Both the position numbers and the translations under genes were made by a program. From Candidatus Peregrinibacteria bacterium (GTDB lineage: Bacteria; Patescibacteriota; Gracilibacteria; Peribacterales; Peribacteraceae), in contig JAYUSS010000131.1 of the NCBI GenBank assembly GCA_043755535.1, positions 10,829 through 74,828 on the forward strand: a stretch of DNA of 64,000 nt, given 5' to 3'. This document shows, in pieces, positions 37,844 to 64,000 of this stretch; positions within the stretch are counted from its first letter, which is position 1; each line of letters opens with the position of its first letter. The notes below the pieces were generated by a model. That model made no database searches. It was not told the DNA's origin and saw only the letters and a list, made by a program, of their open reading frames with translations.

Positions 37844-37864
37844 ATCTTTGTAAATGAGCATTTT

Positions 37865-37888: not shown

Positions 37889-37920
37889 ACTATTGCGTGT
37901 GCCACTCCCAAAAATGGGTT

Positions 37921-38949: not shown

Positions 38950-38957
38950 GCCCGGTC

Positions 38958-41276: not shown

Positions 41277-41282
41277 AAACAG

Positions 41283-41615
41283 TTAATTCCTTATTTTTTC
41301 TCGTACAGACTTCACCCACTCCTGCCCCTTATCCCCACCCCACAGTAACCACGCAATAAACCCATTGCTTGGTTTTTCCGGGTTAAAGAAATTCTTACCT
41401 CGTTTATCTACCTCATGTCGGGCGAAGTAGCTGTACATGCGGGCGATCGTTCGTGCAGAAACCGGCTTACCTGCAGCCAAGTGTTCGGCCATGGCTAACC
41501 CTACTTCGGTGCCGCCGCGTTTGAATATTTTACGCAGATCTAGTCCGCGTGAGGCTTCGAGGGAAACTTCCGGTGGGGGAATGAATTCCTGCTTGTGATG
41601 CTTTAGTGAGTTCAT
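41283..41615 (-). CDS. Small conserved-looking hypothetical protein
   Basis: 110 aa; ..RGGTEVGLAMAEHL..ARMYSYFARHEVDK..NGFIAWLLWGGDKG.. This reminds me of a small domain seen in phage/mobile-element proteins, but I cannot name it reliably. Confidence 0.45.
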   Translation of the reverse strand: MNSLKHHKQEFIPPPEVSLEASRGLDLRKIFKRGGTEVGLAMAEHLAAGKPVSARTIARMYSYFARHEVDKRGKNFFNPEKPSNGFIAWLLWGGDKGQEWVKSVREKIRN

Positions 41616-41646
41616 TGAAGGCAGTATATACCTTTTATTTTGAGTA

Positions 41647-41708
41647 GTTTACAATAGAGTTTACAATAAAAAAACATGAGGTTACAATAGAGTTTACAAT
41701 AAAAAAAC
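41647..41708. promoter_or_regulatory. Two 28/29-identical direct repeats (GTTTACAATAGAGTTTACAATAAAAAAAC vs GGTTACAATAGAGTTTACAATAAAAAAAC) in a divergent promoter region
   Basis: 41647-41675 and 41680-41708, which gives four TTACAATA boxes between the divergent genes at 41615 and 41727. Confidence 0.6.
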
Positions 41709-41726
41709 TTACGCTATACTTTGTAT

Positions 41727-48172: not shown

Positions 48173-48268
48173 ATAGTAATTATGGGTATATTTTAACCAA
48201 AATGTCAAATTCTCTGGATCGAAGCGTATTCTCTGCTAGGATATCCCAGCTTTTGAGTATTGGGGACT

Positions 48269-48295
48269 CCGGCTTCGCCCGCGAGCTACGCCGAG
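48269..48295. repeat. Variant of the 25-nt element (ccggcttcgcccgcgagctacgccgag)
   Basis: Shares the ccggcttcgc and ctacgccgag ends with the other two copies. Confidence 0.7.
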
Positions 48296-48320
48296 ACAAG
48301 TCGCCAATTGATCTTTATTT

Positions 48321-49901
48321 CTATATTGGGGAGTCGCCAAGTGGTAAGGCACTTGCCTCTGGAGCAAGCATTCGGGGGTTCGAATCCCTCCTCCCCAGCC
48401 ATCTATCACTTATTATAACTTCACGACTTTTAAGCAGTGCTGCGATAATTTCGGTGTATTCGATGTTACTAATTTCTTTGTCGAGGATGGTAATGGCCTT
48501 AAAGAACAAAGATATAAGATGCTTCTTCAAATCGGGAGCAGCTTTGGTGTAAGTCTGGTGCAAGTCGTCTGTCAGCACCATTAAACGGCTGAAGGTATCT
48601 ATATTACCTTCACGCTTCTGTTCTAAGTCCTCTAATTGCTTCTGCAATTGCCCCAGTTCAACGCGGATGTCCTCCGACATGCGCTGGTAGGTATCAGAGT
48701 CTATAACCCTGTCAGCGCGGTCAGTTTCAACGTTCTGGCGACGTGTCTTTAATCGCGTAATACGGTTGTTAATAGCTTTGCCAGTCCTATCAATGCCGCT
48801 ATGTGTTTGGTCGAGTATGTCATTGGCCTTAGCTGCTATTTTCTTCATCAGGGGCGCAGTAAATTCGAGTTTGCTAAATTCATTCGCTATCAGCTTCTCT
48901 AATTCGTCAGAACGGATGTTCTGTCCTACATTGCTATGCTTCTTTTTTGTTAGTGAACAATGATAATAGGCCATGTTCTTCTTCTCATGTAGTTCGGCAG
49001 TTACTTTTCCTTGGCATATCCCGCATCGGAGAATATGACGAAGAAAGAACTTCTCGGAGTGCTTTCGTTCTCTATTTGCGTTTTGGTTGTGTTGGTTCTT
49101 CACTTCTTGGCACAGCTTGAAAGTCGGGTCATCTATGAGGGCTTCATGGTTACCGTTCTTCTCTTGTACCTTTCCTTTATATTTGATTTTGCCGATATAA
49201 AATTCGTCACCAAGCATTTTAATGAACTTGGACTTTGCCATCTTCTTACCTGACTTTGAACGTAAGCCTTTGTCGAACATGATGGTATTCAACACTGTGT
49301 GATTATAATTGCCTGTGGCATAAAGCCGAAAGGCTTCCTCTATTAAATGCCTTTTGGTTTCGTCCACTTGTATTACTCTTCGGACTTTATCGCCGTCGGC
49401 AATGGCAATATTCAGATAGCCAGGTTTTGCAGGTCCAGGCCAACCCCCACTTGCGACTTTGGCTTTCATACCTCGCTTCGTCTTTATGGATATTACCCTG
49501 CTGTAATATTGGTTCATTTCGGATACGAAGCCGTCCATTAGCTCACTCTCTGGTTCATCGGACTCCGTAAACGATTGGTTCAAAGCAACAAGTTTGCACC
49601 CCGCCTCGTTCAGTAAATTTTTTATCTGTTTGTGGTCAGATGAGTTTCTAGCAAACCTATCAGTCTCGGTTACGATAAAATACTTCACGTCATTATCAAT
49701 CACATAATCTATAGCTTCCTGAAAAGCAGTACGTCCCTTGCGGCTTGTTCCGCTTTTTCCTGCATCGGTAAATACCTTCAATATGTTGATATTCCTCCTC
49801 TCAGCAGCTTCACGACAGGCTGTCTCCTGATTTTCGGTAGACTGGCCTTTAGCCTGTCGTGAGCTACTTATGCGCGTATATATGACTCCTGAATTGTCCA
49901 T
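48321..49901 (-). CDS. Large serine recombinase (integrase)
   Basis: VIYTRISSSRQ (catalytic Ser), ..FIVTETDRFARN.., recombinase domain, Zn-ribbon (CGICQGK..YYHCS), coiled coil. The last ~27 codons (..GRRDSNPRMLAPEASALPLGDSPI) are antisense tRNA-Gln. Confidence 0.9.
   Translation of the reverse strand: MDNSGVIYTRISSSRQAKGQSTENQETACREAAERRNINILKVFTDAGKSGTSRKGRTAFQEAIDYVIDNDVKYFIVTETDRFARNSSDHKQIKNLLNEAGCKLVALNQSFTESDEPESELMDGFVSEMNQYYSRVISIKTKRGMKAKVASGGWPGPAKPGYLNIAIADGDKVRRVIQVDETKRHLIEEAFRLYATGNYNHTVLNTIMFDKGLRSKSGKKMAKSKFIKMLGDEFYIGKIKYKGKVQEKNGNHEALIDDPTFKLCQEVKNQHNQNANRERKHSEKFFLRHILRCGICQGKVTAELHEKKNMAYYHCSLTKKKHSNVGQNIRSDELEKLIANEFSKLEFTAPLMKKIAAKANDILDQTHSGIDRTGKAINNRITRLKTRRQNVETDRADRVIDSDTYQRMSEDIRVELGQLQKQLEDLEQKREGNIDTFSRLMVLTDDLHQTYTKAAPDLKKHLISLFFKAITILDKEISNIEYTEIIAALLKSREVIISDRWLGRRDSNPRMLAPEASALPLGDSPI
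48327..48401 (+). tRNA. tRNA-Gln (anticodon CTG), CCA encoded; left junction of an integrated element
   Basis: Acceptor TGGGGAG/CTCCCCA (U1-A72), anticodon stem CTTGC/GCAAG with loop CTCTGGA, T loop GGTTCGAATCC. Base composition drops sharply right after 48401. Confidence 0.9.
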
Positions 49902-49946
49902 AAACTATTTATAATAAAGGCATACAACAAAGAACAAAAATATTTC

Positions 49947-50456
49947 CTATGCACCTTCTTGATAGATATGGTCACTAAATTCATTTCCCCTTGTCTCTAA
50001 ATATTCCCCTACTTCGCAAATAACATCTCCTAACAAAAGTTGCATGCCCGTAAATCCGACGCCATCAATTTTATATGATGGAGGTAATAAAACTAATTTA
50101 CATTCAAAATCTGATAAATAATTTTGTAGCAATATTATCTCTTCTTTCGACTTACATATTCCATATCTATCACTGACAATTAAAGTAGATACTCGTCGTA
50201 CTCCCATTTCTACCAGCATTTCGTGAAAAACGTCACTTTCTGTAGTTACACAATTTTCTTCTTCGACAAATACTTTCTCAACTTTTAAATTACTTTCCTC
50301 GGCATATTCTCTGATTATTTCTTCTTGTAATTTCAGAGAATCGCCACGCTTTTTTGACGATAGTTCTCTACCGCAAGCCTTTAGAAAAATATAACATGTC
50401 TGCTGCATAAAAAAATTGGGGAATAAATAAATATATTCACACCCTAAGCTCGACAT
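49947..50456 (-). CDS. Resolvase-N-domain-like protein with Cys in place of the catalytic Ser (tentative)
   Basis: CYIFLKACGRE..SLKLQEEIIREYAEESNLKVEKVFVEE..FHEMLVEM..STLIVSDRYGICK..ILLQNYLSDFECKLVLL follows the Y-x-R-V-S..SL..Q..vf.D..f..ml..liv..dR..r..l...g pattern, with LKAC instead of ARVS. No DNA-binding domain is seen. Confidence 0.35.
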   Translation of the reverse strand: MSSLGCEYIYLFPNFFMQQTCYIFLKACGRELSSKKRGDSLKLQEEIIREYAEESNLKVEKVFVEEENCVTTESDVFHEMLVEMGVRRVSTLIVSDRYGICKSKEEIILLQNYLSDFECKLVLLPPSYKIDGVGFTGMQLLLGDVICEVGEYLETRGNEFSDHIYQEGA

Positions 50457-50509
50457 GCGCTTTGAAATGGACAGCGACGTTTGTATAAATCTGTCTTGAA
50501 CCTTCGCCG

Positions 50510-50983
50510 TTAAATTCTCACTCCAATCATCACAGGCATCCTGTCATGCCGCGTTGCTACCTGAAAATAGTGTGATGCTGGTTCGGTGAGGACATACACA
50601 TGCGGTTTGCGCTGCTCATCATGGACGAGGACGCCTTTAATGCCCTGCGTCACCTGAAGCCACACGCCTTTCTCACAAATAAACGAGGCAGGAATGTCTA
50701 CGAGTTCTGGGTGCATCCAATTCCATTTCCCTTCCTCCAAGCTCTCTTTCTTGCACCATCCTGTGTGATACAGCCTCGATAGCTTGTTATCCCTGTTGCC
50801 CCACTCAAAAATGCCGAGTTGCCCTCCGTACCACACAGGCAATAGTGCTTTCTTGTCCCTGAACTGAAACCGTATCTCCTTCTCCGCGCCCTCGTTGCGC
50901 GTTATGACATGGCTTTCCAGCTTGTGATGTTCAATCAGCTTGTCCGAGAACTCCCGATATTGGACGGATAATGCGCTGCACAT
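50510..50983 (-). CDS. Short, divergent SRAP (SOS-response-associated peptidase / YedK-like) protein
   Basis: Starts MC (Cys2), has the C-terminal HDRMPVMI motif and intermediate W/E-rich motifs (IFEWG, IPASFICEKGVW). Only 157 aa, compared with about 220 aa as I recall for typical family members. Confidence 0.5.
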   Translation of the reverse strand: MCSALSVQYREFSDKLIEHHKLESHVITRNEGAEKEIRFQFRDKKALLPVWYGGQLGIFEWGNRDNKLSRLYHTGWCKKESLEEGKWNWMHPELVDIPASFICEKGVWLQVTQGIKGVLVHDEQRKPHVYVLTEPASHYFQVATRHDRMPVMIGVRI

Positions 50984-50995
50984 GGGTATTGGAGG

Positions 50996-52261
50996 TTAGA
51001 AACACATTTTGCCTGCAACGTCGCATATTTCGTAATCGTTTGCTGCATCGTCGTATATGTCCTTCAAAGGCAACGTTTCAGCACTACGAAGTGCGAAACG
51101 TCCTATCTTGGCATTCACTAATCGCATCAGTTCTGACGACTTCATGCGGTCACTATGCTTTGTGAATAAACTTAGTTGAATCGTATTGGAACACTGCAAA
51201 CTCTCGGCAATGACATGGACATACCCAACCTTATGCCCCTTCCTCCACCCCGCTTCAAATAAATCTTTGGCTGGTGTCACTAGGCTCTCGAATTCATCCG
51301 TTGCCTCCATCAAGTCCATGCGCCCGTACCAGCTTCCCCCCTCTTTGTAGGACAAATACAGCGCAAGTCTGTCACAGGAAAAATTGTAGTAATGCAGTGC
51401 TTCTGAAAGACGTTCGACATTTCTGACAATCCATCCTCGTAGCCGCAATGGGTCGTCGGTTGCGCCACCTACGCTTCCCCCTCTCGCCATTGCCTTGTGT
51501 GGAGGCCGCGTTGTCTTCAGTGGGCTAATGGCTGTCCCTCGCATTTCCCATAACAGTTGTTCGCCTTTGATAGTGAGGAGTCGTCGAATGAGCTTAGTGT
51601 CTGCTTTCACTAGTTGGTCACAGGTGTAAATGCCGTAGCTGCTTAACTTCTCTTTGCTGCGTCCTGCAATGCCCGTGATGTCGTCCACGGGCTTATCCTG
51701 TAGAAGTGTTGCTATCTCCTCTGGTGACGCGGCTACGTGGCATCCAAAGGGCTTGTTCGTGTCTGATGCGAGCTTGGCGAGCGTCTTGCTTCGGGAAATG
51801 CCGATGCTAACAGGCATCCCTATTTCCTGAAGCATGCGTTGTTGCAATGCCTTAGCCGCTTCGGGCAACGGCAAATTGAAGGCACGCGAAAGAAACGTAG
51901 CGTCGAAAAATAACTCGTCTATGGAATAGTATTCAACGGCGGTGCTGACGGTTTTTACCATCTTTAACATCTGCTTGGAAATAACCTCGTACCAATAAAA
52001 GTCACGCTTCACGAATATTCCTTCGGGGCAGAGCTTAGACGCTTCCCAAATCGGGACACCCGTCTTCACTCCTCGCTTCTTCATTTCGTAGCTCTTGGCG
52101 ATAATGCACGCGCCTTGGTTGCCGAGAACGCCTACGGGCAGCTTTGCTAGATACGGAAAACGCACCCTTTCACATGACACATAGAAACAGTCAGCATCCA
52201 AATGTCCGATGAGAGCATGCGTCTGTGTCATAGGTCGTGCAGTGTACGCTCGTACACCCAT
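50996..52261 (-). CDS. Y-family DNA polymerase, UmuC-like
   Basis: GHLDADCFYVSCERV..PVGVLGNQGACIIAKSYEMKKRGVKTGVPIW..YYSIDELFFD..GISRSKTLAKLAS. The true start is possibly MTQTHAL (52231). Confidence 0.85.
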   Translation of the reverse strand: MGVRAYTARPMTQTHALIGHLDADCFYVSCERVRFPYLAKLPVGVLGNQGACIIAKSYEMKKRGVKTGVPIWEASKLCPEGIFVKRDFYWYEVISKQMLKMVKTVSTAVEYYSIDELFFDATFLSRAFNLPLPEAAKALQQRMLQEIGMPVSIGISRSKTLAKLASDTNKPFGCHVAASPEEIATLLQDKPVDDITGIAGRSKEKLSSYGIYTCDQLVKADTKLIRRLLTIKGEQLLWEMRGTAISPLKTTRPPHKAMARGGSVGGATDDPLRLRGWIVRNVERLSEALHYYNFSCDRLALYLSYKEGGSWYGRMDLMEATDEFESLVTPAKDLFEAGWRKGHKVGYVHVIAESLQCSNTIQLSLFTKHSDRMKSSELMRLVNAKIGRFALRSAETLPLKDIYDDAANDYEICDVAGKMCF

Positions 52262-52289
52262 AACAAGTCAAGGTTCTGCTCGGTTACCT

Positions 52290-52311
52290 ACATTTGGTTA
52301 CCCCTAAATGT
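52290..52311. promoter_or_regulatory. Inverted repeat ACATTT-N10-AAATGT upstream of the polymerase gene (candidate operator)
   Basis: Read directly. Overlaps a GGTTACC direct repeat (52282-52288, 52296-52302). It lies 29-50 nt upstream of the first ATG. Confidence 0.3.
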
Positions 52312-52418
52312 CCCTACAATGCTCTAGGCTCAATTTGAATGTATGCCACATATATTTTATCACTGAAGGTAAAATAGGTTGTTAAAACTAAACTGAGGGA
52401 TAGGCACTTAAATATCTT

Positions 52419-55001
52419 TTATTCATCCGAGTCCAATTTATCCTCAAGTTCGCTTCTAAATTCTGAGTTGATAAGGTTGCCATTTCGTAGGTAGGTAAAA
52501 AATTCAATGTAGGAGATAGGGCTGAGAAAATGAAATAGGTATCGCTGCTTAATCTGCTTTTGTTTCAATTCATTATTTAAATCTTCAAAGTGCTGTTTCG
52601 CATATTTATATTTTGCGCGATTTTCAAGAGAGTCATCGTTGTCAGCTTTTACTTCAACCACAATAAAATAATCGCATTCCTTGTTTTTAATATAAATAAA
52701 ATAATCGGGATTAAATGACTGCTGCTTAGAATGTTTTCCTCCAGTAGATGTAATTGAGTATTCAATGCTATAAAAACCTTTATCTCTCGACTTTACCCAA
52801 GCCTCAATTATTTCAGCGTTTTCCTTTTTGCATAACATTTCAAGAAACTTTCTTTCTGGTTCTGCTTTAGTAAATACAATATTCAAAGGAGTTTTAAACA
52901 AATATGGGTTAATTAGTTTGGAGGAGCTTTTCGGGAATGTCTCATCTTCAATAACTGACTGCAAAATGTCAGAGGTCTCTTTTCCTAATTCTGCTGTGAA
53001 ATCCTCAGTGTAGAACACTGTTGCATAGTGGCGTAGGTTGCCAACTGAAAGTGTCTCTTGTTCAATTTTATTCGTGTTAAGCAAATAAGGGTCGGTTATC
53101 TTTCGAATATTTACAACCGTTTTTCCTCTTTTGCGTAAGAGTGTCCCAAACATTGAAAGAATCTTTTGCTTATTTTTTTCAGTCATTACATTTCCCTTGA
53201 TACCAACCCTATTCATCGAGTTTCGTATAATCGTTTTTATTGCCTCTTTAGGAGGGAGATTTTCTTTCGTATAGTAACCCTCAGGCAACCTTAATATTTT
53301 GCCCTCCCATTCACGGATTTTAAATTCATCAAATATTTTATTTACAACTTCTTCAATCGTGTATGTGTTATATGAAATAAGTGTGTTCTTAGATGATATT
53401 TTACCACTCAAGTCTGTGTACTCTGTTTCTTTTTCTGTTTTCTCAACTTGAGCGATTAATTCGATATAACCCTTAGTATAATCAAATTCAGTATGTTCTC
53501 TCGTTGATTCTTTCTCCTGAGGTTCCTTCTCATAATTAATATTGTAAAGCTCAAAATTGAACTTGCTCCTTTTTCCAGTCCTCAGCGGTAAACTAAATAA
53601 CTTCATTTCTACTTCTAATATTTCATCCACAAGTCCCGTAATATTACGACTCCAACTATCATGATTAAATACTCTGACACGAGGCTGCGGAGATTGATAC
53701 TCAGGAGGAATCCTTAGTCCTCGTCCCAATACTTGTGCAATAAGCAGCTTTGAATTAAAAGCTCTATCCTCCCATGGAACAATTTGAAACACATTTTTTA
53801 CATCCCACCCTTCGGTGAGCATTGAAACTGATACTATCCACTCAACGGGGTTATCCGCGTTATCAACTTTAGAAAGTTTAGCAATATTCGCTCTATGGTC
53901 TTTATGCGAAGTAACAATAAGAACTTTTTTATTAATATCCTCTCTTGGTAAATTCTCCTTTTGGGTAAGGTAATCAATTAGTTCTTCAGCTAGCTGTTTA
54001 GCTCGTGTTATATCTTTTGTAACTAAAATTGTTAAAGGTTTTACTTTTCTATACATGTCTTTATTCGATTTATGATTATCATAAATTTTTTGGAACTTTT
54101 CCTGACTGTCTAAAGTATCATCCTGACTAACATAATCTACCATTTTAACCATTCTGTCGTCCTCTGCCTGCCGTAGGGAATAACGATAGATAACGTCATT
54201 AAAATATTCATCTTCGATATATGCAGTGCCTGTGAATCCAAGGATAAAATGAAACGAATAATCTGAACTTAACAAAAAATCTTTCCATTTTCGGATATCC
54301 TGATTCTGTTTATCATTCCCTGCTACTACATTGTAGATGTGATGTGATTCATCATTCAAAACTAATACTTTATCGCCGCCTCCCTTTAAGCTGTCTCGAA
54401 TTGAGGAACCAGTTTTATCATATACTGCATGAATATTTTCGATGCAAATGTCACCATTTTTTACCGTAACATTTGCATTAACAATACTTGGATTTCGAAA
54501 TTTTGCGTTATCAGGAATGGAATTCTTTAACTTAATATCACTGCTAAGAGCAGTAAATTTTTCCATTAAACCTTTTTCGATTGTAAGGGACGGACAAAGC
54601 ACCAACACTCTATCAACTAATCCCAAGCCAAGCATAATTTGCGCGATTGCATACATTACGTAACTCTTTCCAGTGCCAGTCGCTAAATCTATATTTGCAC
54701 TTAGTTTCTGCGGCAACTGCAAATGCCGACAATATTCATCAACAGTATTATAACGAGTTCTTAACTCAGTATTGTGCGGGTCACTCCAGTTTTCCCTAAC
54801 AAGGTCTTCTGTACTCTTATAATTACCTGACGCTAAAAATATTATTGCTTGTTGTATTGCTTCTTTTTGGTAGCTCCTACCATCAATAGCAATATCCAAA
54901 AACCTATCCCAGCTGCTTAAATCTAATTTTGCAGGGTCAAAGGTTTGGCTTACCTTTAATACCAGGTCGCCTGTCTTATATGTTTTAATTTCCTGAAGCA
55001 T
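52419..55001 (-). CDS. res: Type III restriction enzyme, Res subunit (SF2 helicase + PD-(D/E)xK nuclease)
   Basis: LATGTGKSYV (motif I), LNDESHH (motif II), MLTEGWDV, QVLGRGLR. C-terminal nuclease motif PDYFIY..FIVVEVK. Confidence 0.85.
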   Translation of the reverse strand: MLQEIKTYKTGDLVLKVSQTFDPAKLDLSSWDRFLDIAIDGRSYQKEAIQQAIIFLASGNYKSTEDLVRENWSDPHNTELRTRYNTVDEYCRHLQLPQKLSANIDLATGTGKSYVMYAIAQIMLGLGLVDRVLVLCPSLTIEKGLMEKFTALSSDIKLKNSIPDNAKFRNPSIVNANVTVKNGDICIENIHAVYDKTGSSIRDSLKGGGDKVLVLNDESHHIYNVVAGNDKQNQDIRKWKDFLLSSDYSFHFILGFTGTAYIEDEYFNDVIYRYSLRQAEDDRMVKMVDYVSQDDTLDSQEKFQKIYDNHKSNKDMYRKVKPLTILVTKDITRAKQLAEELIDYLTQKENLPREDINKKVLIVTSHKDHRANIAKLSKVDNADNPVEWIVSVSMLTEGWDVKNVFQIVPWEDRAFNSKLLIAQVLGRGLRIPPEYQSPQPRVRVFNHDSWSRNITGLVDEILEVEMKLFSLPLRTGKRSKFNFELYNINYEKEPQEKESTREHTEFDYTKGYIELIAQVEKTEKETEYTDLSGKISSKNTLISYNTYTIEEVVNKIFDEFKIREWEGKILRLPEGYYTKENLPPKEAIKTIIRNSMNRVGIKGNVMTEKNKQKILSMFGTLLRKRGKTVVNIRKITDPYLLNTNKIEQETLSVGNLRHYATVFYTEDFTAELGKETSDILQSVIEDETFPKSSSKLINPYLFKTPLNIVFTKAEPERKFLEMLCKKENAEIIEAWVKSRDKGFYSIEYSITSTGGKHSKQQSFNPDYFIYIKNKECDYFIVVEVKADNDDSLENRAKYKYAKQHFEDLNNELKQKQIKQRYLFHFLSPISYIEFFTYLRNGNLINSEFRSELEDKLDSDE

Positions 55002-55002
55002 A

Positions 55003-57093
55003 TTATTTAGCGGAAGGATGTATTTTTAACTCCTCCTTAAATTCATTTCCGTAGATATCAACATAGATAACCATGATTTTATTGCCACATTCATTCTTAT
55101 TAAAAGTTGGAATGATAATTTCTTTTTGATGTTTAAGTACCTTCTTAATTTCAATGGCATCTTCCTCTTCAGTATCGTTCCCTTTTTTGCCATTTTTCTT
55201 AGGTAAAAGGTCTTCTGCAAAGAAAGTAGAATCCATTTCAAATTCCTTACCGTTGTAATCTAAATCCACCAATACCATTGCTAATGATTCAAAGTTGCCC
55301 ATTTCATTCCCGCTCTCCTCTTCTGCAAAATCAGAATTGAATTTTGAGATATGCACAGTTACTGAATCCTTATTTACCACTAATTTTGAAGTAACTTGTG
55401 GTTGTCTCATAAAATGGAAACCAACCGCATCTTCTAAATCATTGATATACTTTTTGCTTTGTGGCTGTCTAAATTTCTTAAATCTAACTTTATGCAGTTC
55501 TCGAATCACATGATAAGGAACTTTTAGAAAATAATATTTAACGTTTCCAATTTCCTGATAATCGCTAATAAAATCTACGTAATTAGCTGGTGCTACGACG
55601 TAAACACGGCTGCCAATTTTATTACCAATATGCGAATGTAAGTCTTCTAAATAGTCTTTATCCACTTGCGAGTTCTTGAATTTCCAATATGGAAAAATGA
55701 TGCAATAGAATCCATCCTTCTTCTGTCCGCTGAAACTAATACCCCCAACTTTCTTATTTGTTTCTTCTATCTCAAAAAGCTCCATGACGAATTTAATAAA
55801 TTCCTCCGTTTGCAAATCAAATATTTTTTGTAAGTCATAATAACCAGTGTTTAAAGTCACGAAACTCTTTGCAAGCTGCTGATGTTTTTCCTTTTCCTTC
55901 ATTAAACTTTTACTTGTTTGAATATTCAATAATCTTTTTTGTATTGTGTAATATGAAAGTTTGCCTATGTCACAAACTATCCATTTTCTGCCCAATTTTT
56001 CGGCAACTGCGGCTGTTGTACCTGAACCTCCGAAGAAATCCATAACCAAATCACCCGGCTGTGAGGATGCCGAAATGATTCTAGCTAGTAATTCTTCAGG
56101 CTTTTGAGTCGGATATCCTACGCTGTCCTCAGGTGTATAAGCATATGTCCCTGTCGGTAAGTCATTGAAGCTCTCGGCTAACTCTTTCTTTCCCATCCAT
56201 ACGTCCCATGCTGACTGAGGTCTTTTTTCAGTTGCCTCAAGAATTGCTTCATCCTTTGTAAGCCTTGGGTTATCTGAAATATAAGTTTTAAGGTAATTGG
56301 AACCTCCGCTACTTTCTTTGCCTCTAGTGTAAAACCAGCCATTTTTATCTTTATCCAAGGCATTGGTGATGCGTTTTGAATAACCCAGTCGCAAAGGTGG
56401 GTTAAAGACTGCTGTAGGTGATTTATAGCAAAATATTAGCTCGTGAGATTTTGGGAAGAATTTTCCTGAACCCATCAACCCACAAACCCAAATGATTTCA
56501 GCGAATTGAAAACTAGGAAATATTTCATCGAGTAGAAGTTTAATAACGTGTCCTTTTCGAGAATCAATATGAACATAAATTGTTCCATCTTCAGAAAGAA
56601 TCTCTTTTGCAAGTATCAATCTTCTTCTAATAAATTCTACAAAATCAGCCCCCTTTGCCTTATCCGCATATGCTTTTTCCTGGCTAGAACCTGTGAAATC
56701 ACTGTTTGTTGCAAAGGGCGGGTCTATATAAATCAATTTTACCTTTCCTTTTATCTTATTTTTAATCACAGGATTCTTATTTTCATAAACGGTTTTTAAT
56801 AGCTGTAAATTATCACCAAATACAATCATATTTTGCCAGCCGTCATTGAATTTCTTCCTCTCACCGTTAAATATCTTTTCAATTTGAAGGGGTACAGGAC
56901 AAATACCGTCTTCATTAGAAAGGATATCCTCTTTTCGCATTTTACCTCCATAAACTACTTCATATTCCTTCTGCAGAATCGGAAACATTTTATATTTATA
57001 CTCTGCTGGAAGTGGCTCATTTTTCTGTAAACGACTAATAATGTCTTGAATTTCAAATTCATCGAGCTGGCTTGCAGAGTTATTCATGTTCAT
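55003..57093 (-). CDS. mod: Type III restriction-modification methyltransferase, Mod subunit
   Basis: [11 protein letters not shown] (motif IV) precedes [15 protein letters not shown] (motif I), the beta-class order. The central variable region is a presumed target-recognition domain. The stop abuts the res start. Confidence 0.85.
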
Positions 57094-57155
57094 GTGGGGA
57101 GTCTATCAAATAGAACGATATAAGGTAAGGTTTTATAAAACACCCTATAAGCTCG

Positions 57156-58079
57156 CTAGTACATCTTCAGGACATTCTTAGCCAAAGTAAGGGCATAGGG
57201 AATGTCATCCGCGCTCTTAAGGTCCAAGTACGAGATATTTTGGTTGTAATACTTCATGGAATTTGGGATGTCCTTCACGCGGCGTTGCGGGTCTATGGCT
57301 TTAAACGCGCTGGCCAAATTGCGCGGAAACATCAGGCGGAGCTTTGCCAGATAGACATGGAAGCTAAGTGCATTTTTCCTGCCGATACGAAGTGCGATAT
57401 ACCCTTTGCGCGGCTGTACCTCTAGGCGAGAGTCGAGCTTCGTCAGTTCTGAAAGCATTGTGTCATATAGCTCTCGGGTATCCTCCCAGCCCGCCTTGAA
57501 ATGGTCGTCCACTGTGTAGGTTTTTACCTCGCGAGCGACTTTGCGTACGCTCTCGGAGGCAGGGGCAATTTGCGCGAGCTTCGCGCCCTTCTGGCTGCTT
57601 TGTAGCTGGATAAGCGAGAGCAAGCTGTTTTCGTATTGCTGCACCTCCCAAAATTCAAACGGCAAGTCCTGAATGCCTAGAGCCTCGCGCTGGTGCGGAG
57701 TGAACGAGGCAGCAATAAACAGGACACGGGACGCTTCCCAGTTCACGTCGTCACGCTTGAGCTTCGGAATGACATCATGGGCTTTCAAAACGAATTCTGC
57801 TCGGTTGTTGAGCAAGAGGGATAGATAGGCGAACCCTTGGTCAATTAGAGGCTCATGCGTACCCCGCTTGTATTCGATAAGTACGAAGCTGTTTTGCTCG
57901 GTGTCGAATGCAACAGTGTCTATGCGTAGGCCGTTGTTCGGTGCGAATTCTGAAGCAACAAACGTCAGGCCAAACGCTTCGTCTAGGTCAGCTTCGATAA
58001 GCCGTTGCAAATCGCGCTCTATACGAAAGGGTTTTTCCTTTATTCGCTTAAGTGTGTTGTTGGCTGTAAATAGTGGCAT
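57156..58079 (-). CDS. PD-(D/E)xK nuclease-like N-terminal domain + DUF5655-like C-terminal domain protein
   Basis: RIDTVAFD..FVLIEYKR (D..E-x-K). The C-terminal half (..KGYIALRIGRKNALSFHVYLAKLRLMF..) is DUF5655-like. Co-directional with mod and 62 nt upstream of it, but GC-richer than mod/res. Confidence 0.5.
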   Translation of the reverse strand: MPLFTANNTLKRIKEKPFRIERDLQRLIEADLDEAFGLTFVASEFAPNNGLRIDTVAFDTEQNSFVLIEYKRGTHEPLIDQGFAYLSLLLNNRAEFVLKAHDVIPKLKRDDVNWEASRVLFIAASFTPHQREALGIQDLPFEFWEVQQYENSLLSLIQLQSSQKGAKLAQIAPASESVRKVAREVKTYTVDDHFKAGWEDTRELYDTMLSELTKLDSRLEVQPRKGYIALRIGRKNALSFHVYLAKLRLMFPRNLASAFKAIDPQRRVKDIPNSMKYYNQNISYLDLKSADDIPYALTLAKNVLKMY

Positions 58080-58118
58080 ATGCGGATAGTGTAACCAATG
58101 CGCCTTCGTTTAAATACG

Positions 58119-58469
58119 TCATTTTGAACCATCCTCTAAAAACCTCTTTTGAAGTTTCTGTATGCGCTCTCCTGTTAATTGATACTTGAGCAGTGCAGTT
58201 ACATCGCCGTCGCTGTATATTTTATCGAGTCCCCATGTAACGTACATATCCGACGTTTCAGTCAAGCAGTCTCTCGCTAGTTCTTGGTATTCGGCGTACT
58301 TAGCCGTATATTTTTCCACTACCGTTAGATTCTGTGCCAACGCTCTTTTATTGCCTTGAATCTGGTAATACTGAGCAACAATCGTGCCTGTCATTGCCAT
58401 GATGATGAACGCGCACGCTATCAGAATGCCGAAGGCGTGCTTCTGCATTTGAGTGTGTATCTTATTCAT
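58119..58469 (-). CDS. Small single-pass membrane protein (hypothetical)
   Basis: One TM segment (FGILIACAFIIMAMTGTIVA); 116 aa. Confidence 0.4.
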   Translation of the reverse strand: MNKIHTQMQKHAFGILIACAFIIMAMTGTIVAQYYQIQGNKRALAQNLTVVEKYTAKYAEYQELARDCLTETSDMYVTWGLDKIYSDGDVTALLKYQLTGERIQKLQKRFLEDGSK

Positions 58470-58557
58470 AAGAGTAGGCGGGAAAGGGCTAACACCTTAA
58501 GTATTACACCTTAAACATGAGGTTCTCAAGACAAGCCTGAGGTTAGAAGATAAACAG

Positions 58558-58806
58558 GTGAAAAAACAAGGAGCTTCCCATCGAGCTATAGAAGACGTTT
58601 CGTTGCAACTTAGCGATAGGATTCGTGCGCTTCGCGAGAAACAAAACCTCACTCAGCAAGCACTCGCTTCAAAGGCAGGGGTGTCCTTAAAGTACCTACA
58701 AGCCCTAGAGTCCCCGAATCCGCATAATGCGAGCGTGGTTATCCTGAACAAGCTGGCCAAGGGTTTCGACATGCCTCTCTGGAAGCTCCTAAAATTCGAC
58801 GAGTAG
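58558..58806 (+). CDS. XRE-family helix-turn-helix transcriptional regulator
   Basis: IRALREKQNLTQQALASKAGVSLKYLQALES is an XRE-type HTH; 82 aa; GTG start. Confidence 0.75.
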   Translation: MKKQGASHRAIEDVSLQLSDRIRALREKQNLTQQALASKAGVSLKYLQALESPNPHNASVVILNKLAKGFDMPLWKLLKFDE

Positions 58807-59052
58807 TTTTGATACTTATAAAGGTACATCGAGTTATTAAACTTTTGCCCCCCCTCGCGCGAACGTCTAAAAACAGGGATAAAGTGCCTTGGCTCGTTCC
58901 TGACAGAACGGAAGTCTTGGTTTCTTTCCCCCAACCCCCTAAAACCAACCACTATAACGTCATTATAAGTAGCCTGTTTAATTCTAAAGGGCGCACTTCT
59001 CTAATAGGGGCTGCGGTTTTATTGGTAATTTTATAACCTATTTAAAAACAGG

Positions 59053-59823
59053 TTATAAAATTTTAAGCTCTGGTCTGTAGAAATTAACCGTCCCATACCG
59101 TTGGAAGCCTTTATAGAACTGATTGCTAGCCACTTTCTGAACCGAAGCCGCGAACCATTTACCACCCATCGGAGCCGCGATGCCTCTTTTATTAAGCAAC
59201 TGCGCTATGTGGTGGTAACTGAGCCGCTTACCCTGCTGCCGCTTCCGTCTAAACCCTACAATGTCCCTAACCGTTGTTAATTCGGCGGGAACAGCCACAT
59301 ATTCGCTTCCTAATGTCCTGTAACCGTAGGCACAACGGCCTCCAGCGTATCCTTTGCCAGCCTCTACTTTTTTCAGTCTGCCAGCGGACATTCGCGCAGT
59401 AATCATTTCCTTTTCGTATTCGGCCATCATAGCTTTGAACTGTCTAAATAATTTCCTACTAGGCTCGTTCGATAGCAGGTCAGGTTCTTCTATAGAAATA
59501 ACGGCCAGTCCACGTTTCTGAAAGTCGGCCAATAACTGCTCTGAAACCACGAGGCTGCGCGATAGCCTGTCGAGCCGTAGAAATACCAACCCCAAGCCCA
59601 TGTCTTTATGCTCCTCTGCGTAATTCAACAATCGTAGAAGTGCGGGACGGTCTTTAAGCGAACCTGAAACTGCCTCGTCCCTGAAAATATCGAGCAACGG
59701 TAGGCCATGTTTCTCTGCGTACTCTTTAATGCGGTCTTCCTGAATCTTGATACCGAAACCGTCGCGCTGGCCTTCCGTTGAAATTCTGGAATACCCTATC
59801 AAGTGTCGGGGTGTGTCGGCCAT
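59053..59823 (-). CDS. Serine recombinase (resolvase domain + partial recombinase domain, no Zn ribbon)
   Basis: LIGYSRISTEGQ (catalytic Ser), FLRLDRLSRS, then GYAGGRCAYGY.. recombinase-domain-like segment; 256 aa. Confidence 0.85.
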   Translation of the reverse strand: MADTPRHLIGYSRISTEGQRDGFGIKIQEDRIKEYAEKHGLPLLDIFRDEAVSGSLKDRPALLRLLNYAEEHKDMGLGLVFLRLDRLSRSLVVSEQLLADFQKRGLAVISIEEPDLLSNEPSRKLFRQFKAMMAEYEKEMITARMSAGRLKKVEAGKGYAGGRCAYGYRTLGSEYVAVPAELTTVRDIVGFRRKRQQGKRLSYHHIAQLLNKRGIAAPMGGKWFAASVQKVASNQFYKGFQRYGTVNFYRPELKIL

Positions 59824-59866
59824 AGAGAGAAGTTGGTAGGAGTTATAATGGCGTTATAAGTGCGGC

Positions 59867-60070
59867 TCAGATGGCCATGATTTGCTGCGGGCCATCGGGG
59901 TACATCTCGCAATAGCGTTTGTAGTTCTTCATGATGTCCAAACATTCGATGCGTTCTAGCCCGCTAAATTCCATTACGGTTTTTATATCGAACATGTTTG
60001 TGACACCTGAACGTCGAGTGTTTTCGTAGGCATGGAATTTTTCTGGGGTAATCTGTGGCGGATAGTCCAT
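59867..60070 (-). CDS. Small DUF5049-like protein (phage-associated family, tentative)
   Basis: MDYPPQI..RRSGVTNMFDIKTVMEFSGL..IMKNYKRYCEMY. An internal ATG was chosen so it does not overlap the upstream 60087-60329 ORF. Confidence 0.4.
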   Translation of the reverse strand: MDYPPQITPEKFHAYENTRRSGVTNMFDIKTVMEFSGLERIECLDIMKNYKRYCEMYPDGPQQIMAI

Positions 60071-60086
60071 ATAAAGAAATGGGTAA

Positions 60087-60329
60087 TTAAATAGGCTTTT
60101 TGTTCTTGCGTCTCTCTGCCCTCCATAGTTTTTTGTACTGTGCATCCAGCCTCCTAAACTCTTGCCCTCCAAACTCCGCCCCACGGTGTCTTGAGAATGC
60201 TTCTTCCAATCGGCCATTCGCTTCTAAGTAGCGTTGCTCATTCCGTAACGCTTCAATTTTGGACAAAACCTTTTTAATTCTTAACAAAATTTCTTCCATT
60301 TTCGGTGTCTTCGGCAAATTCTTCGGCAT
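60087..60329 (-). CDS. Small coiled-coil hypothetical protein
   Basis: 80 aa, heptad-like charged sequence. Confidence 0.35.
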   Translation of the reverse strand: MPKNLPKTPKMEEILLRIKKVLSKIEALRNEQRYLEANGRLEEAFSRHRGAEFGGQEFRRLDAQYKKLWRAERRKNKKPI

Positions 60330-60655
60330 AAATATCTTTGAGTACGGCGAAGCCAGCCTTTCTGCTTTATTCCTGAAGCGAGGGGCTGTTCTTTCGTCTA
60401 AAATGTATCTTTATACTATATACCTATTCGTCATAGGACAAGCATATTATGGCTTATGTATGCCATTAGTTTGTTGTTCGATTTCCTATTTGTTCTAAGC
60501 CCCCCCTTATACGCGGGTATTGTCTCTTTTTCGTATATTAGGAAATTAAATGAGAATAAATAAACCTCTCCAATAAATCCAAAGTGGCTACCTATACGCA
60601 AGAATGCCGATAGTGCTTTTATCAATTATATGACTTTTAAAGTCTTATGACTTTT

Positions 60656-61672
60656 CTACTGCTCACTTTTGGCGAAATACTGAAGCTCCTCTGATAGTAA
60701 GTACTTAAATGGTGCAAGGTACTGCCTCGCAACTTGGTCTGTATTGATATCAAAGTTAAAATTTAAGGCAATGTTTAAGTGTTTCCTGTCACACAGATAA
60801 CGCATATCCCATATTTTTTCGTTCCACCTAGCATGGTCATTGGCAAACCTACTATGTACGCACCTCCAGATAGCCCTGATAAATAATTCTGGTTCTAGCC
60901 CCTGCTTGATTGATGTCCTGAGCTTCTTGTAGTCCTCCTCCAGCCATTCACATTTCCGCCCCGTTGCTAGATAGAACCCCATAACAATATGCGCCTGTTC
61001 ATCAGCTGACATATCATCGAATATTTGATGCCGCTCCAAGAGCATTTTTGTTATTTCTGAATTATAACCGTTCAATTTTTTGTCAAGCGTCGGCGGCTCT
61101 GGCGCGTTGCTATTATTCTGAATAACTAATTCATTATTCTTTTCCTCTCTCTTTTCAGTATCGTCGTCCTTCGCCCATGTCCCACCCTCCGTCCCACCTT
61201 CATTTTTAGTATTTACTTCATTAAATTTATCTAATTCTATTACCTTCTTAATATTATGTTCAGCATTTGTGCTTAGAGGGTCATTGCTTTCTTCAGCAGA
61301 GGTAACTTCATTTTTATTTATAGGCTCGTTGCAAGTCTGCATAGAGGTATCAGCATCCTTGCTGCTAGGGGTCGTATCAGGAATGACACGAGTCTTGGTA
61401 ATTTTTATATATCTCTTATTGCCTTTAGCCTTATCTATCTCAATTTCAATATAGCCTCGTTTTTGTAACTCACTTATACAACGTGTGACAGTCGCTTTGC
61501 TTAGGTTATACATCTCTGCAAAGTATCTATTGTTTGCCCAACAAAAGCCTTCTTTATGTGTTAACAAATAAATATCGCCGTACATCAGTCTTGCGGCAGG
61601 GTTTATCGTATCATCATGGGCTATATACATCGGTATCTTCATGTAGGACGGTGGTTTCTTCCTTTTATACAT
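60656..61672 (-). CDS. N-terminal wHTH replication/recruitment-type protein (plasmid/phage Rep-like, tentative)
   Basis: ARLMYGDIYLLTHKEGFCWANNRYFAEMYNLSKATVTRCISELQKRGYIEIE is an HTH typical of replisome-organiser-like proteins. Followed by an acidic low-complexity middle and a helical C-terminal domain. Confidence 0.45.
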   Translation of the reverse strand: MYKRKKPPSYMKIPMYIAHDDTINPAARLMYGDIYLLTHKEGFCWANNRYFAEMYNLSKATVTRCISELQKRGYIEIEIDKAKGNKRYIKITKTRVIPDTTPSSKDADTSMQTCNEPINKNEVTSAEESNDPLSTNAEHNIKKVIELDKFNEVNTKNEGGTEGGTWAKDDDTEKREEKNNELVIQNNSNAPEPPTLDKKLNGYNSEITKMLLERHQIFDDMSADEQAHIVMGFYLATGRKCEWLEEDYKKLRTSIKQGLEPELFIRAIWRCVHSRFANDHARWNEKIWDMRYLCDRKHLNIALNFNFDINTDQVARQYLAPFKYLLSEELQYFAKSEQ

Positions 61673-61692
61673 AAATATATTTGGTAGATAAA

Positions 61693-61929
61693 TTAATAAG
61701 GTATGTCTGAAAATAATCGTTTCTTTACAGTTGTTAGGGCATTTACAAAATCAATCGCACCTACTTTTTCATTGCCCCAGTAACGCCGATTTATTTCATC
61801 CTCTTCGATATTCATTTCAAGAATGAACTGCGCCCTTCGTTGTGTCCTATCTATGCTTAACAACTCTCCCTTTTTATCGCAGAGACACCATGCACAGAGC
61901 TGAAAGTCAGTCGTTGTAAATATATGCAT
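61693..61929 (-). CDS. Small DUF5659-like protein (tentative)
   Basis: TTDFQLCAWCLCDKKGELLSIDRTQRRAQFILE..AIDFVNALTTVKKRL matches the pattern as I remember it. Confidence 0.35.
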   Translation of the reverse strand: MHIFTTTDFQLCAWCLCDKKGELLSIDRTQRRAQFILEMNIEEDEINRRYWGNEKVGAIDFVNALTTVKKRLFSDIPY

Positions 61930-62162
61930 AAAAATAAAAGATGAATTTATAAAATATCGGCTTTTGGCGATACTAAGTTCTTATCGCTTTGAGCCTTAGG
62001 AAGAGGTTTAAGCCCATCAAGCGCGAGAAACAGATGTGCTGCTTGCGTGATAAATATTTCTAACGCATCCGATGATTTGGAGGGCTTGTCGTTTTCCATG
62101 CCACTATGAAATCACCTTCAGCCCTCCCAAACTGGACAGGGGAACTTAAATGAATCTGTCTC

Positions 62163-62975
62163 TTACTTTCGTCTTAATTGTTCATATTCTTGCTGAACTC
62201 TAGTAATCTCTTGGGTGACAGCCCCTTTAGAAACCGAGTCTGTGGTTGATAGCTTAGTGATTGAGCCAAATCCCTCATTTATTGTTTGCCATATTTCCTC
62301 GTTATTAAGCCTTTTAGTGAGGCCATCAATAATAAGATATTTCCTATAAACCAGATAGGAACTTATACCCTTCTTCTTCGGGTCTGGAGGAGCAAGTGTT
62401 GAGTGATATGCCATAATCATTGCTTCCATCTCAACTATGCTATTAAAGACACCTTTACTCTTTAGTAAAATATTCACTCCTCGTTCAGTAAGTTCTATAG
62501 AAACTTTTTCATCTTCATATTTAGAAACATCCTTCAATTCTACGCCAAGTGCCACCGCATAGTCCTTCTTGGAATCTACAGCGCGTACTAATTTGGCATC
62601 TTTGCCTACATCATGCGCTAGAGGAAAATTCAAAAATCTTCCATACCTGACAAAGTTTGCGATAGATACAAACCAATCTGGGCTTAGAGAATATTTATTA
62701 ATAAGTTCACCAATGTCGTCTTTAAAGTGTTTGTATTTATTATTTATAACGACAAAATCATCAATATCTAATTCGGTTTTATATGTATCTTTTTCAAGAA
62801 CTTTCACATATCCCTTTTCAGGAATCTCATGCTTCTGCCGAAGCTGCATAATTTCTCTTTGAATATCCATGCTTGTGATTATTCTGAAAAAATTATTTTG
62901 CCCCCTAGCATTACCCATTTGGAGGCAATTTTCCTTAATAACATCCCTATCTATCATCAATATTTTATTCATCAT
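62163..62975 (-). CDS. Hypothetical protein, no recognisable domain
   Basis: 270-aa ORF with ordinary protein-like composition. Confidence 0.45.
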   Translation of the reverse strand: MMNKILMIDRDVIKENCLQMGNARGQNNFFRIITSMDIQREIMQLRQKHEIPEKGYVKVLEKDTYKTELDIDDFVVINNKYKHFKDDIGELINKYSLSPDWFVSIANFVRYGRFLNFPLAHDVGKDAKLVRAVDSKKDYAVALGVELKDVSKYEDEKVSIELTERGVNILLKSKGVFNSIVEMEAMIMAYHSTLAPPDPKKKGISSYLVYRKYLIIDGLTKRLNNEEIWQTINEGFGSITKLSTTDSVSKGAVTQEITRVQQEYEQLRRK

Positions 62976-63179
62976 ATATATATCCCACTTTACTAGCCCA
63001 CCACTGCCATAGATAGGCTTCTCTGTCGCTGCGTTATCGAAGTATATGAGTCTATTACATCAAGTTTATGTTCCATCTGTTTCCAGTAACTCATATTACT
63101 TAACACGGTTATAATAATGTTTGAACTGAGCAGCCATGTAAAGTTAACTTTACACTATATAAACAGTCATGAAAAACAG

Positions 63180-63617
63180 TTACTCATGATGTGCTTTTGC
63201 ATGCAAGCGATGGAACAACACTTGAGTTGTTTTCCTTCGTTCTTCATAAGGTCCATCTAATTTGTCGGTTACTTCTTCGGGGAAATAGCCAAAGACTCCA
63301 AGAAAGTATCGATATGAAACTTCTTCGTAAGGACCCAAGCTATAACTACCAGAAAAATATTCTCTGCATACATCTCGCGTGTGACGCACTATTTCATAAA
63401 GATCGATAATACTGAGTTCTCGTTCAATTTGGCTGGAGATATACTCGGCAATGCCTATTCCCCATTTGTAAGCAAGTTCATTAAATTCCTTGCTCTCATC
63501 AAGAGGAAATCCATTAGGCCAATCTTTTGCAATGTGCTCAGGAGGTTGAGGCCAAGGATTGACTGTATTATTGCTCAAGATGCAGACAGGAAAGTGTGAC
63601 AGTGTACCGTAGGACAT
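63180..63617 (-). CDS. Hypothetical protein, no recognisable domain
   Basis: 145-aa ORF. Confidence 0.4.
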   Translation of the reverse strand: MSYGTLSHFPVCILSNNTVNPWPQPPEHIAKDWPNGFPLDESKEFNELAYKWGIGIAEYISSQIERELSIIDLYEIVRHTRDVCREYFSGSYSLGPYEEVSYRYFLGVFGYFPEEVTDKLDGPYEERRKTTQVLFHRLHAKAHHE

Positions 63618-63759
63618 GAGGAATATCTAAATATACACTTTTATCTCTAAAATCATCCACCAGTCCCAGCCATTACTTTTTACACTTATAAACGAATAAT
63701 TTGGCTTAATATAGGCAAAAATAATGATCTCAAATTTTGCTCTGCACCAGTCTTCTTCG

Positions 63760-64000
63760 TTATTCTTTGAGGAGCTTCAGGAACGGTTTATTGATATACA
63801 ATTTTTCTCGGCCTATTTTTACAGATTCCAAGATGCCTATTGTGGCTAATCCATCCAGGTATTTTCGTGCTGTTTGTTCTTTTGCTATTCCTGCTTCGAT
63901 TAAAAATTGTGTTTTGCAATACGGTTGCTGAAATAGAAGGTCGAGTAGTTCTTTTGAGTAGGATGGAAATTCTTTCTTCATGTGTATTTTTGTCGTTTCC
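63760..64000 (-). CDS. Fic-family protein, C-terminal wHTH part only (gene runs off the window or is truncated)
   Basis: YSKELLDLLFQQPYCKTQFLIEAGIAKEQTARKYLDGLATIGILESVKIGREKLYIN matches the C-terminus of Fic/DOC proteins. The frame stays open upstream of the ATG to nt 64000. Confidence 0.6.
   Translation of the reverse strand, partial: ETTKIHMKKEFPSYSKELLDLLFQQPYCKTQFLIEAGIAKEQTARKYLDGLATIGILESVKIGREKLYINKPFLKLLKE

Follow-up and report, generated by a model that had tools for sequence, protein, structure and literature searches.

A large serine recombinase gene running antisense through tRNA-Gln and the probable integrative element behind it in a Candidatus Peregrinibacteria genome

The recombinase gene and its overlap with tRNA-Gln

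The window analysed here is a stretch of 64,000 nt from a Candidatus Peregrinibacteria bacterium (assembly GCA_043755535.1); it corresponds to positions 10829-74828 of contig JAYUSS010000131.1 (C131), which ends 104 nt past it in an assembly of 1.47 Mb and 153 contigs. Within this window, an intact tRNA-Gln(CTG) gene is followed by a low-GC block whose first gene encodes a large serine recombinase (LSR), and the open reading frame (ORF) of this LSR crosses the entire tRNA-Gln gene in antisense (Table 1). The C-terminus of the protein reads ISDRWLGRRDSNPRMLAPEASALPLGDSPI, at which the frame stops. Codon 501 (Trp, TGG) corresponds, in reverse complement, to the CCA at the end of the tRNA, and the final 26 codons consist of this CCA complement and 25 codons of antisense tRNA (LGRRDSNPRMLAPEASALPLGDSPI). 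The stop codon TAG (48321-48323) lies 4-6 nt outside the 5' end of the tRNA, within host DNA. An initial annotation, made from the sequence alone, had described both the antisense read-through and a stop codon supplied by the host; ARAGORN, the ORF coordinates and the sequence bear out the former, and the position of the TAG bears out the latter.

The same annotation had called the protein a canonical LSR, and its domains agree with this: Pfam detects a Resolvase domain (PF00239, E 9.8e-30, residues 6-154) together with the Recombinase (PF07508) and Zn_ribbon_recom (PF13408) domains. Residues R10, S12, D81, R82 and R85 are present and invariant in two homologue alignments (A1 and A2), PDB entry 3guv matches residues 7-157, and the closest recombinase relatives come from metagenome-assembled genomes of Peregrinibacteria/Peribacteria. 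In the AlphaFold (AF2) model, which has a mean predicted local distance difference test score (pLDDT) of 82, long helices at residues 349-396 and 402-445 form a coiled-coil insert between the zinc-ribbon strands, and the fold ends at strand 495-497 (VII), just before Trp501. Residues 500-526 score below 50, and the tail encoded by the tRNA is predicted to be disordered. The sequence of such tails also varies; in the nearest genome, G001, a tRNA with one C fewer in its acceptor stem changes the frame, giving WLGGGIRTPE before the stop. Because the tail is neither conserved nor ordered in the model, we regard it as a by-product of the position of the crossover.

The composition of the block was said to switch from GC-rich to AT-rich right after the CCA. 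GC is indeed low, ~0.41 over 48-64 kb as compared with 0.505 for the genome, but it declines gradually at the CCA, with no sharp step. The GC profile agrees with a second remark, that the block is a mosaic of AT-rich mod/res genes and a GC-richer part at 57.1-59.9 kb; the values are 0.32-0.38 for mod/res (52.5-57.0 kb) and 0.44-0.52 for 57.0-60.0 kb. We interpret the window from ~48.40 to 63.13 kb (or to 63.67 kb, if site B described below is its end) as one LSR integrative element at tRNA-Gln, and assign this interpretation a probability of about 0.8.

Table 1. Genes, candidate attachment sites and neighbouring features, in window positions
Feature	Position	Strand	Basis
tRNA-Gln(CTG), intact	48327-48401	+	ARAGORN; 3' part is the putative B arm of attL
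Large serine recombinase (LSR), 526 aa	48321-49901	-	Pfam PF00239/PF07508/PF13408
attL core and putative P' arm: CCCCAGCCAT, CTATCAC, TTATTATAAC	48393-48419	+	Sequence
169-aa protein, degenerate resolvase-like N-domain	49947-50456	-	Pfam Resolvase E 1.3e-5
157-aa protein	50510-50983	-	No match in Pfam, PHROGs, PADLOC
Y-family (DinB/ImpB-type) DNA polymerase	50996-52261	-	Pfam IMS E 2.4e-39 and IMS_C
Type III restriction enzyme, Res	52419-55001	-	Pfam ResIII (PF04851); PADLOC REase_III
Type III DNA methyltransferase, Mod	55003-57093	-	Pfam N6_N4_Mtase (PF01555) E 8.7e-41; PADLOC MTase_III
Candidate anti-phage defence protein PDC-S18	57156-58079	-	PADLOC PDLC04945, E 5.2e-82, full length
Short serine recombinase, 256 aa	59053-59823	-	Pfam; PHROG integrase / DNA invertase
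Replication initiator-like protein, N-terminal winged helix	60656-61672	-	Pfam HTH_36; PHROGs
270-aa protein, last gene before site A	62163-62975	-	No family match
Site A, best attR candidate (P arm and core): GTTATAATAA-TGTTTGAACTGAG-CAGCCAT	63108-63137	+	Pattern, conservation
145-aa ORF between sites A and B	63180-63617	-	ORF list
Site B, second attR-type site (core and different P arm): TGGCTGGGACTGGTGGATGATTTTAGA, encodes WLGLVDDFR	63646-63672	-	tblastn with P0003 tail
Fic-family gene, C-terminal part	63760-64000	-	Pfam SoFic-like_C E 5.4e-26

Attachment sites at the two ends

On the recombinase strand, the left attachment site (attL) reads GTTATAATAA-GTGATAGA-TGGCTG. The codons GTT ATA ATA A just before the TGG are identical in seven LSR genes whose proteins are 44-69% identical; identical codons in LSRs so divergent point to a constraint on the DNA rather than on the protein, and we read GTTATAATAA as the putative outer motif of the P' arm. 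Because exchange by serine recombinases takes place at a 2-bp core, with no long direct repeat as its result, a long repeat of the tRNA is not to be expected at the right end of this element. The initial annotation had seen no second copy of the tRNA 3' end, and none of the 25-nt 3' segment of tRNA-Gln occurs in the whole 1.47-Mb assembly with <=3 mismatches allowed; that observation stands, but such a repeat is an unsuitable criterion for a serine recombinase. The accompanying proposal that the right end lies outside the window, where a long tRNA-segment repeat would mark it, is not supported: two sites of the type expected for the right attachment site (attR), with the core CAGCCA(T), lie within the window. 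The core shared with attL is 7 bp (CAGCCAT) at the first of them, site A, and 9 bp (CCCAGCCAT) at the second, site B, and the right end of the element is most likely inside the window.

Site A contains a perfect inverted copy of the GTTATAATAA found in the last codons of the LSR, followed by 13 nt and then by CAGCCAT. When site A and the P' arm are joined at CAGCCAT, the 10-mers form perfect inverted repeats with a 27-nt spacer, the midpoint of which is a C of CAGCCA, and CA is the sole central dinucleotide common to both partners (site A and attL). The pattern was matched in 0 of 100 shuffles, and the 29-mer of site A, with <=3 mismatches, occurs in 7 of 200 family genomes from five genera (0 with the reversed pattern as a control). 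The core of these type-A sites tracks the nearby tRNA: it is CAGCCA in G146 and G012, where a tRNA-Gln lies ~1 kb upstream, and GAGCCA in G202, 0.7 kb after a tRNA-Asn. In G201, contig C40, a type-A site lies within the last codons of a full-length LSR gene, where it encodes WLPSSNGIITLL; the tail predicted for the window LSR when joined at site A is WLLSSNIIITVL, and the homologues P0009 (WLPASVGIKTVL) and P0014 (WLPSPKLLILLKD) carry similar tails that do not come from a tRNA. An element ending at site A would measure 14,735 bp, with a free-form integrase of 547 aa. Judging from the sequence, site A is probably the attR, and we favour it because it is symmetric with the P' arm, its core covaries with the tRNA, its counterpart lies inside the end of the G201 LSR gene and it is the site nearer to the recombinase.

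Type-A sites also occur in small cassettes elsewhere. A one-gene NUDIX cassette in G012 has on one side a 23-nt tRNA 3' fragment-CAGCCA-N8-TTATAATAAC and on the other a type-A site; at this locus (L034, G012:C32, 11161-12502) a tRNA-Gln(UUG) is followed by a 690-nt segment, the 23-nt copy of the tRNA 3' end and then the cassette, an arrangement that looks like a miniature stack of insertions. In G201, three type-A sites with the core GAGCCA lie on one strand within 2.7 kb (L183, G201:C8, 6412-9060), of six genome-wide; this array consists of short cassettes with no recombinase gene nearby. Apart from the 10-mer, the LSR 3' end has no inverted duplicate within 48.3-64.0 kb of our window, that is, there is no second full copy of the attachment site of the element (attP). 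Inverted GTTATAATAA partners were also sought upstream of related LSRs (G064, G065 and G066), and the single match, with one mismatch and the wrong central bases, was set aside as chance.

If site B were the attR instead, which we think a good deal less probable, the element would be 15.27 kb long and include the 145-aa ORF, and the free integrase would have 534 aa and end in VIISDRWLGLVDDFRD. The 27-mer of site B starts exactly at the core TGGCTG and is identical at 22 of 27 positions to the DNA after the LSR core in L020, the gene of P0003 (a 69% identical LSR), where this type-B DNA encodes the real tail WLGLVDDFRN; the free form made via site B, with the tail WLGLVDDFRD, would have nearly the length of P0003 (534 vs 535 aa). 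The 27-mer is present in 31 of 200 family genomes from 23 genera and in none of the control, typically downstream of tRNA-Gln: type-B sites lie 0.14-1.7 kb downstream of this tRNA in opposite orientation in G014, G070, G074 and G213, and three copies follow tRNA-Gln(UUG) in G177. Most of these sites have no recombinase gene nearby. Site B, however, is farther from the recombinase than site A and lacks the GTTATAATAA motif of an inverted partner of P', with 4 of 10 matches at the symmetric position; it resembles the tRNA arm instead, the type-B family consensus matching the tRNA-Gln 3' end at 14 of 23 positions by manual count. Moreover, the L020 junction could be a tandem junction of two elements, and an identical 27-mer, site C, on contig C140 (748-774) brackets the Fic gene together with site B, and both look like relics. 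A relic P' arm to the left of site B, which would have represented the 3' end of a relic recombinase at a tandem junction, was rejected because its alignment score fell within shuffled controls, and the 145-aa ORF, which matches no family in Pfam, PHROGs or PADLOC, was rejected as an LSR remnant since it has no similarity to the LSR. Sequence words related to GGGGACTCCGGCTTCGCCCGCGAGCTACGCCGAGACAAG flank several type-B sites in other genomes.

The anatomy of the locus suggests how the element may have arrived. The LSR would have inserted it at the last bases of tRNA-Gln(CTG), and the crossover would fall within the CAGCCA(T) common to both ends, most likely at the CA on the boundary between acceptor stem and discriminator base. 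A crossover at the very end of the tRNA leaves tRNA-Gln intact and lets the stop codon of the LSR come from host DNA. The attP would then be contained in the 3'-terminal part of the recombinase gene. After integration, the ORF would pass through Trp-Leu (TGG CTG, complementary to the CCA end and the discriminator) into the antisense tRNA until a chance stop; in the circular state, it would continue into the P arm from the far end and, via site A, would acquire the tail WLLSSNIIITVL. No circle or free form emerged when viral contigs were scanned for the type-B arm.

The landing site in relatives and the DNA beyond the right end

The divergent pair tRNA-Arg(TCG)/tRNA-Gln(CTG) is conserved across the family, and the DNA after the CCA of tRNA-Gln differs in every relative examined. 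In G001, which belongs to the same genus, the same tRNA pair is followed by a different low-GC block of 8 kb, the first gene of which encodes an unrelated LSR of 501 aa that also enters the tRNA; after this block, homology to the genome of the window resumes on contig C140 at ~20,690. The different block in G001 and the variable DNA after the CCA together indicate that tRNA-Gln is a recurrent landing site and that the block in the window is not ancestral, which supports the proposal in the initial annotation of an integrated element at the 3' tip of tRNA-Gln. The tRNA-Gln of G001 (L014, G001:C1, 18238-18311) has one C fewer in the 3' strand of its acceptor stem (CTCCCAGCC), which is either a homopolymer assembly error or a sign of a damaged tRNA.

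The overlap seen in the window is widespread. We surveyed 80 loci of relatives on one-genome-per-species contigs, 70 of which contain the end of the LSR ORF; in 41 of these 70, the ORF runs 12-141 nt into an antisense tRNA, namely Asn (22), Gln (6), Arg (3), Glu, Asp and Pro (2 each) and Ser, Leu, His and Lys (1 each). In 33 relatives, which span many phyla and 10 tRNA species, the ORF has the CCA complement as an in-frame Trp codon, and many homologues end in peptides of antisense tRNA such as DSNP, DSNQ, GFEP and IRTP. The antisense overlap of these ORFs with tRNAs is far more than chance, and the element is part of a large LSR clade that is common in Patescibacteria and has tRNA 3' ends as its targets. 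A second LSR in the same genome (C44:19858-21456) enters tRNA-Thr(UGU); its element (L118, C44:16886-21456) is 4.5 kb long and is flanked by a 9-bp repeat, GTATGGAGC, that contains the CCA complement, and the unoccupied arrangement of a histidine-kinase (HK) gene and tRNA-Thr in G002 and G005 is the empty site for it.

One could object that the read-through is a gene-calling accident beside a variable hotspot and that the recombinase was not responsible for the insertion. The tail, after all, is not conserved as a protein and is predicted to be disordered, the tail in G001 changes frame and the overlaps range from 12 to 141 nt. The geometry, by contrast, is conserved, with the CCA read as Trp in so many tRNA species and phyla, and the DNA-level conservation of the P' and P arms points to a functional attachment site; we therefore find an accident scarcely credible.

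Beyond site B, the window ends within a Fic-family gene, which lies outside the element whether it ends at site A or at site B and which a multicopy repeat truncates ~100 nt beyond the end of the window. The final ~95 nt of C131 (74838-74932 of the contig, onward from window positions 63906-64000) read ATACCAACTTGCATTTAAAACGCC to CAGCCATCGA and match the ends of contigs C30, C145, C13, C29 and C1 at 99-100% identity; this terminal repeat is one end of a multicopy insertion-sequence-like repeat, and no contig of the assembly continues past it. Contig C140 starts with an N-terminal fragment of Fic, followed by site C and then by ~20 kb of accessory genes (an ice-binding-like protein and type I restriction-modification genes with a second Fic) before the flank syntenic with G001. 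The two Fic fragments cover residues ~1-165 and ~270 to the end, with the repeat between them, and it is plausible that C131 and C140 adjoin through this gene. If they are neighbours, the composite island at tRNA-Gln would span at least 36 kb.

This arrangement bears on the extent of the element, which might be thought to continue past the window to site C (C140:748-774) or to the G001-syntenic flank (C140:~20,690), with sites A and B internal to it. Site C is identical to site B, synteny with G001 resumes only at C140:~20,690, and the DNA to the right of site B is low in GC and accessory, with Fic and then the type I restriction-modification genes of C140. Two conserved attR-type sites are nevertheless nearer to the recombinase, the repeat interrupts the Fic gene, and relatives commonly have arrays of such sites, without a recombinase, after tRNA-Gln; these arrays speak for stacked remnants and not for a single element. 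We consider an end beyond the window unlikely. For an element that ends within the window, the DNA to its right (site B, Fic and site C) would be what remains of at least one earlier element sharing this core, and the simplest reading of the order tRNA, element, site A, 145-aa ORF, site B, Fic and site C is a stacking in which the newest element is beside the tRNA and decayed, older ones have been displaced outward.

Several points weigh against the interpretation of a single LSR element ending at site A. Site A was noticed after the fact, and the inner part of the P' arm and that of site A are symmetric at 3 of 13 positions. Both A-type and B-type P arms are conserved and both adjoin LSR 3' ends in nature, type B being the one found after the 69% identical LSR in L020, and A is preferred to B on the grounds of symmetry, core covariation and proximity. 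To the right of both sites the DNA is still accessory and low in GC, so that composition marks no end, and the link of C131 with C140 is inferred rather than assembled. Of the two signs that the initial annotation had looked to, an attR and an empty site, candidates for the former were found, but not the latter: no clean empty insertion site in the host (attB) was found in 40 relatives by the left flank or in the family and genus by the right flank from C140, which is shared with G001 only, itself the bearer of an island of its own. Two metagenome scans, with the reconstructed attB and with the B' flank, likewise gave no empty site or attP junction.

The DNA after the CCA differs in every genome. 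We speculate that these recombinases need only the tRNA half of attB, that their cassettes stack and that the exchange of the tail, a consequence of the putative position of attP within the gene, serves as a sensor of integration; we regard this as a tentative proposal with the odds against it. New elements would insert between the tRNA and the previous element and thereby build cassette arrays, each cassette ending in a conserved P arm, and arrays are present both here (sites A, B and C) and in relatives (2-6 sites). The replacement of the native tail by tRNA-encoded filler could substitute for, or assist, a recombination directionality factor, and the 169-aa protein encoded next to the LSR might be a partner in this sensing. 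This protein, whose gene immediately precedes that of the LSR, has no YxRxS catalytic motif and is apparently inactive; it is possibly a partner or regulator of the LSR. A counterpart of 152 aa with 24% identity occupies the same position beside the LSR P0005 in L021. None was found upstream of the LSR in 80 more distant relatives, and we accordingly rejected a small resolvase-like ORF as a general partner of LSRs.

Cargo and comparison with known systems

All genes of the element are on the minus strand. The adjacent, co-oriented Mod and Res ORFs constitute a type III restriction-modification system. The replication initiator-like protein matches ten PHROG families of replication-initiation, O-like and DnaD-like proteins (best E 3e-17), and the 256-aa serine recombinase has a resolvase domain and a partial recombinase domain without a zinc ribbon, so that it is possibly a multimer resolvase, an invertase or a truncated integrase. 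Because the element has a replication initiator of its own, it appears plasmid-like rather than a prophage, and we call it an integrative, plasmid-like defence island. A prophage or a prophage remnant at the tRNA, for which the integrase at a tRNA and the PHROG matches to the integrase and to phage-type replication initiators could be cited, is very unlikely: PHROG matches are limited to integrase and replication families, Pfam and PHROGs reveal no virion genes (capsid, tail, terminase or lysis) among the tested ORFs, and the ~15 kb hold mostly defence, repair and replication genes. Other defence cargo is carried alongside LSRs closely related to this one: Gabija-like OLD/UvrD genes, Shedu SduA_C and large helicases.

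The enzyme resembles known large serine integrases of phages and integrative and conjugative elements, such as those of phiC31, Bxb1, Listeria A118/LI and TP901-1 and SprA of SPbeta, in its three domains and long coiled-coil insert, in its short attachment sites with few shared bases at the crossover and, as judged from site A joined to P', in an attP of pseudo-palindromic form, each arm of which has its outer motif ~13 nt away from the centre. Unlike for those integrases, the target here is the 3' tip of a tRNA, the ORF spans the putative attP and the tail would change on integration; the carrier, too, is plasmid-like and not a phage. The nearest analogue may be the tyrosine integrase of myxophage Mx8 (IntP/IntX), whose attP reportedly lies within the integrase gene and whose target is a tRNA 3' end; integration is said to rewrite the C-terminus of that integrase, and the phage is said to carry a segment identical to the tRNA. 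The two enzymes belong to unrelated families with different mechanisms, and in our element only 7-9 bp are shared.

As in the tRNA islands of Islander/TIGER, an accessory island stands beside an intact tRNA, and relatives carry different islands at the same tRNA; unlike in those islands, no tyrosine integrase (Phage_integrase domain) was found among the ORFs scanned and there is no repeat of a tRNA gene (tDNA) fragment. According to the Islander paper, tyrosine integrases are the only ones known to have tRNA genes as targets (PMC4383910); in a review of mobilisable elements, the sites of serine recombinases are placed inside protein genes (PMC5704250), and the word tRNA never occurs in a catalogue of LSRs for genome engineering (PMC10083194). 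A single published case in which a serine recombinase is predicted to use a tRNA gene, at a tRNA-Met site, is the Paracoccus phage vB_PamS_Pami6; it differs in being a tailed phage, and its paper reports no overlap of ORF and attachment site and no clade-wide pattern (PMC6536676). Our literature search brought up no paper on a serine integrase whose gene extends across its own attP and no publication on tRNA-targeting, attachment-site-spanning LSR elements of Patescibacteria. The enzyme and its chemistry are ordinary; the class of target, the gene spanning the attachment site and the stacked conserved arms are undescribed in the literature searched.

The occurrence of an LSR clade on tRNA tips of at least 10 tRNA species in many phyla, if true, would change how islands are searched for, as island finders relying on tDNA-fragment repeats would miss all such elements. 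For genome engineering, the clade would offer integrases with targets in essentially every genome. A gene that spans its own attachment site would provide a simple and testable model for how a serine integrase might sense integration. The putative mobile defence island of ~15 kb at the tip of tRNA-Gln belongs to an ultra-small bacterium of the candidate phyla radiation (CPR) and would illustrate the movement of restriction and other defence genes in CPR bacteria, a group whose plasmids and phages are little known.

A few observations concern the DNA around this and other tRNA-Gln genes. The DNA upstream of the tRNA in the window (48215-48300) is GC-rich and similar to C97:45204-45320 (for example, GGGGACTCCGGCTTCGCCCGCGAGCTACGCCGAGACAAG). 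Contig C97 itself (45329-45403, L121) terminates at the 3' end of a tRNA-Gln(UUG), with the CCA one base short; G004:C9 starts <=80 nt from a tRNA-Gln-like match and G021:C5 stops 55 nt past a tRNA-Gln. Contig ends at or near tRNA-Gln in these three cases suggest variable or repeated DNA after those tRNAs. Upstream of the element, positions 32000-42000 of the window form a separate low-GC block, with GC of 0.40-0.47.

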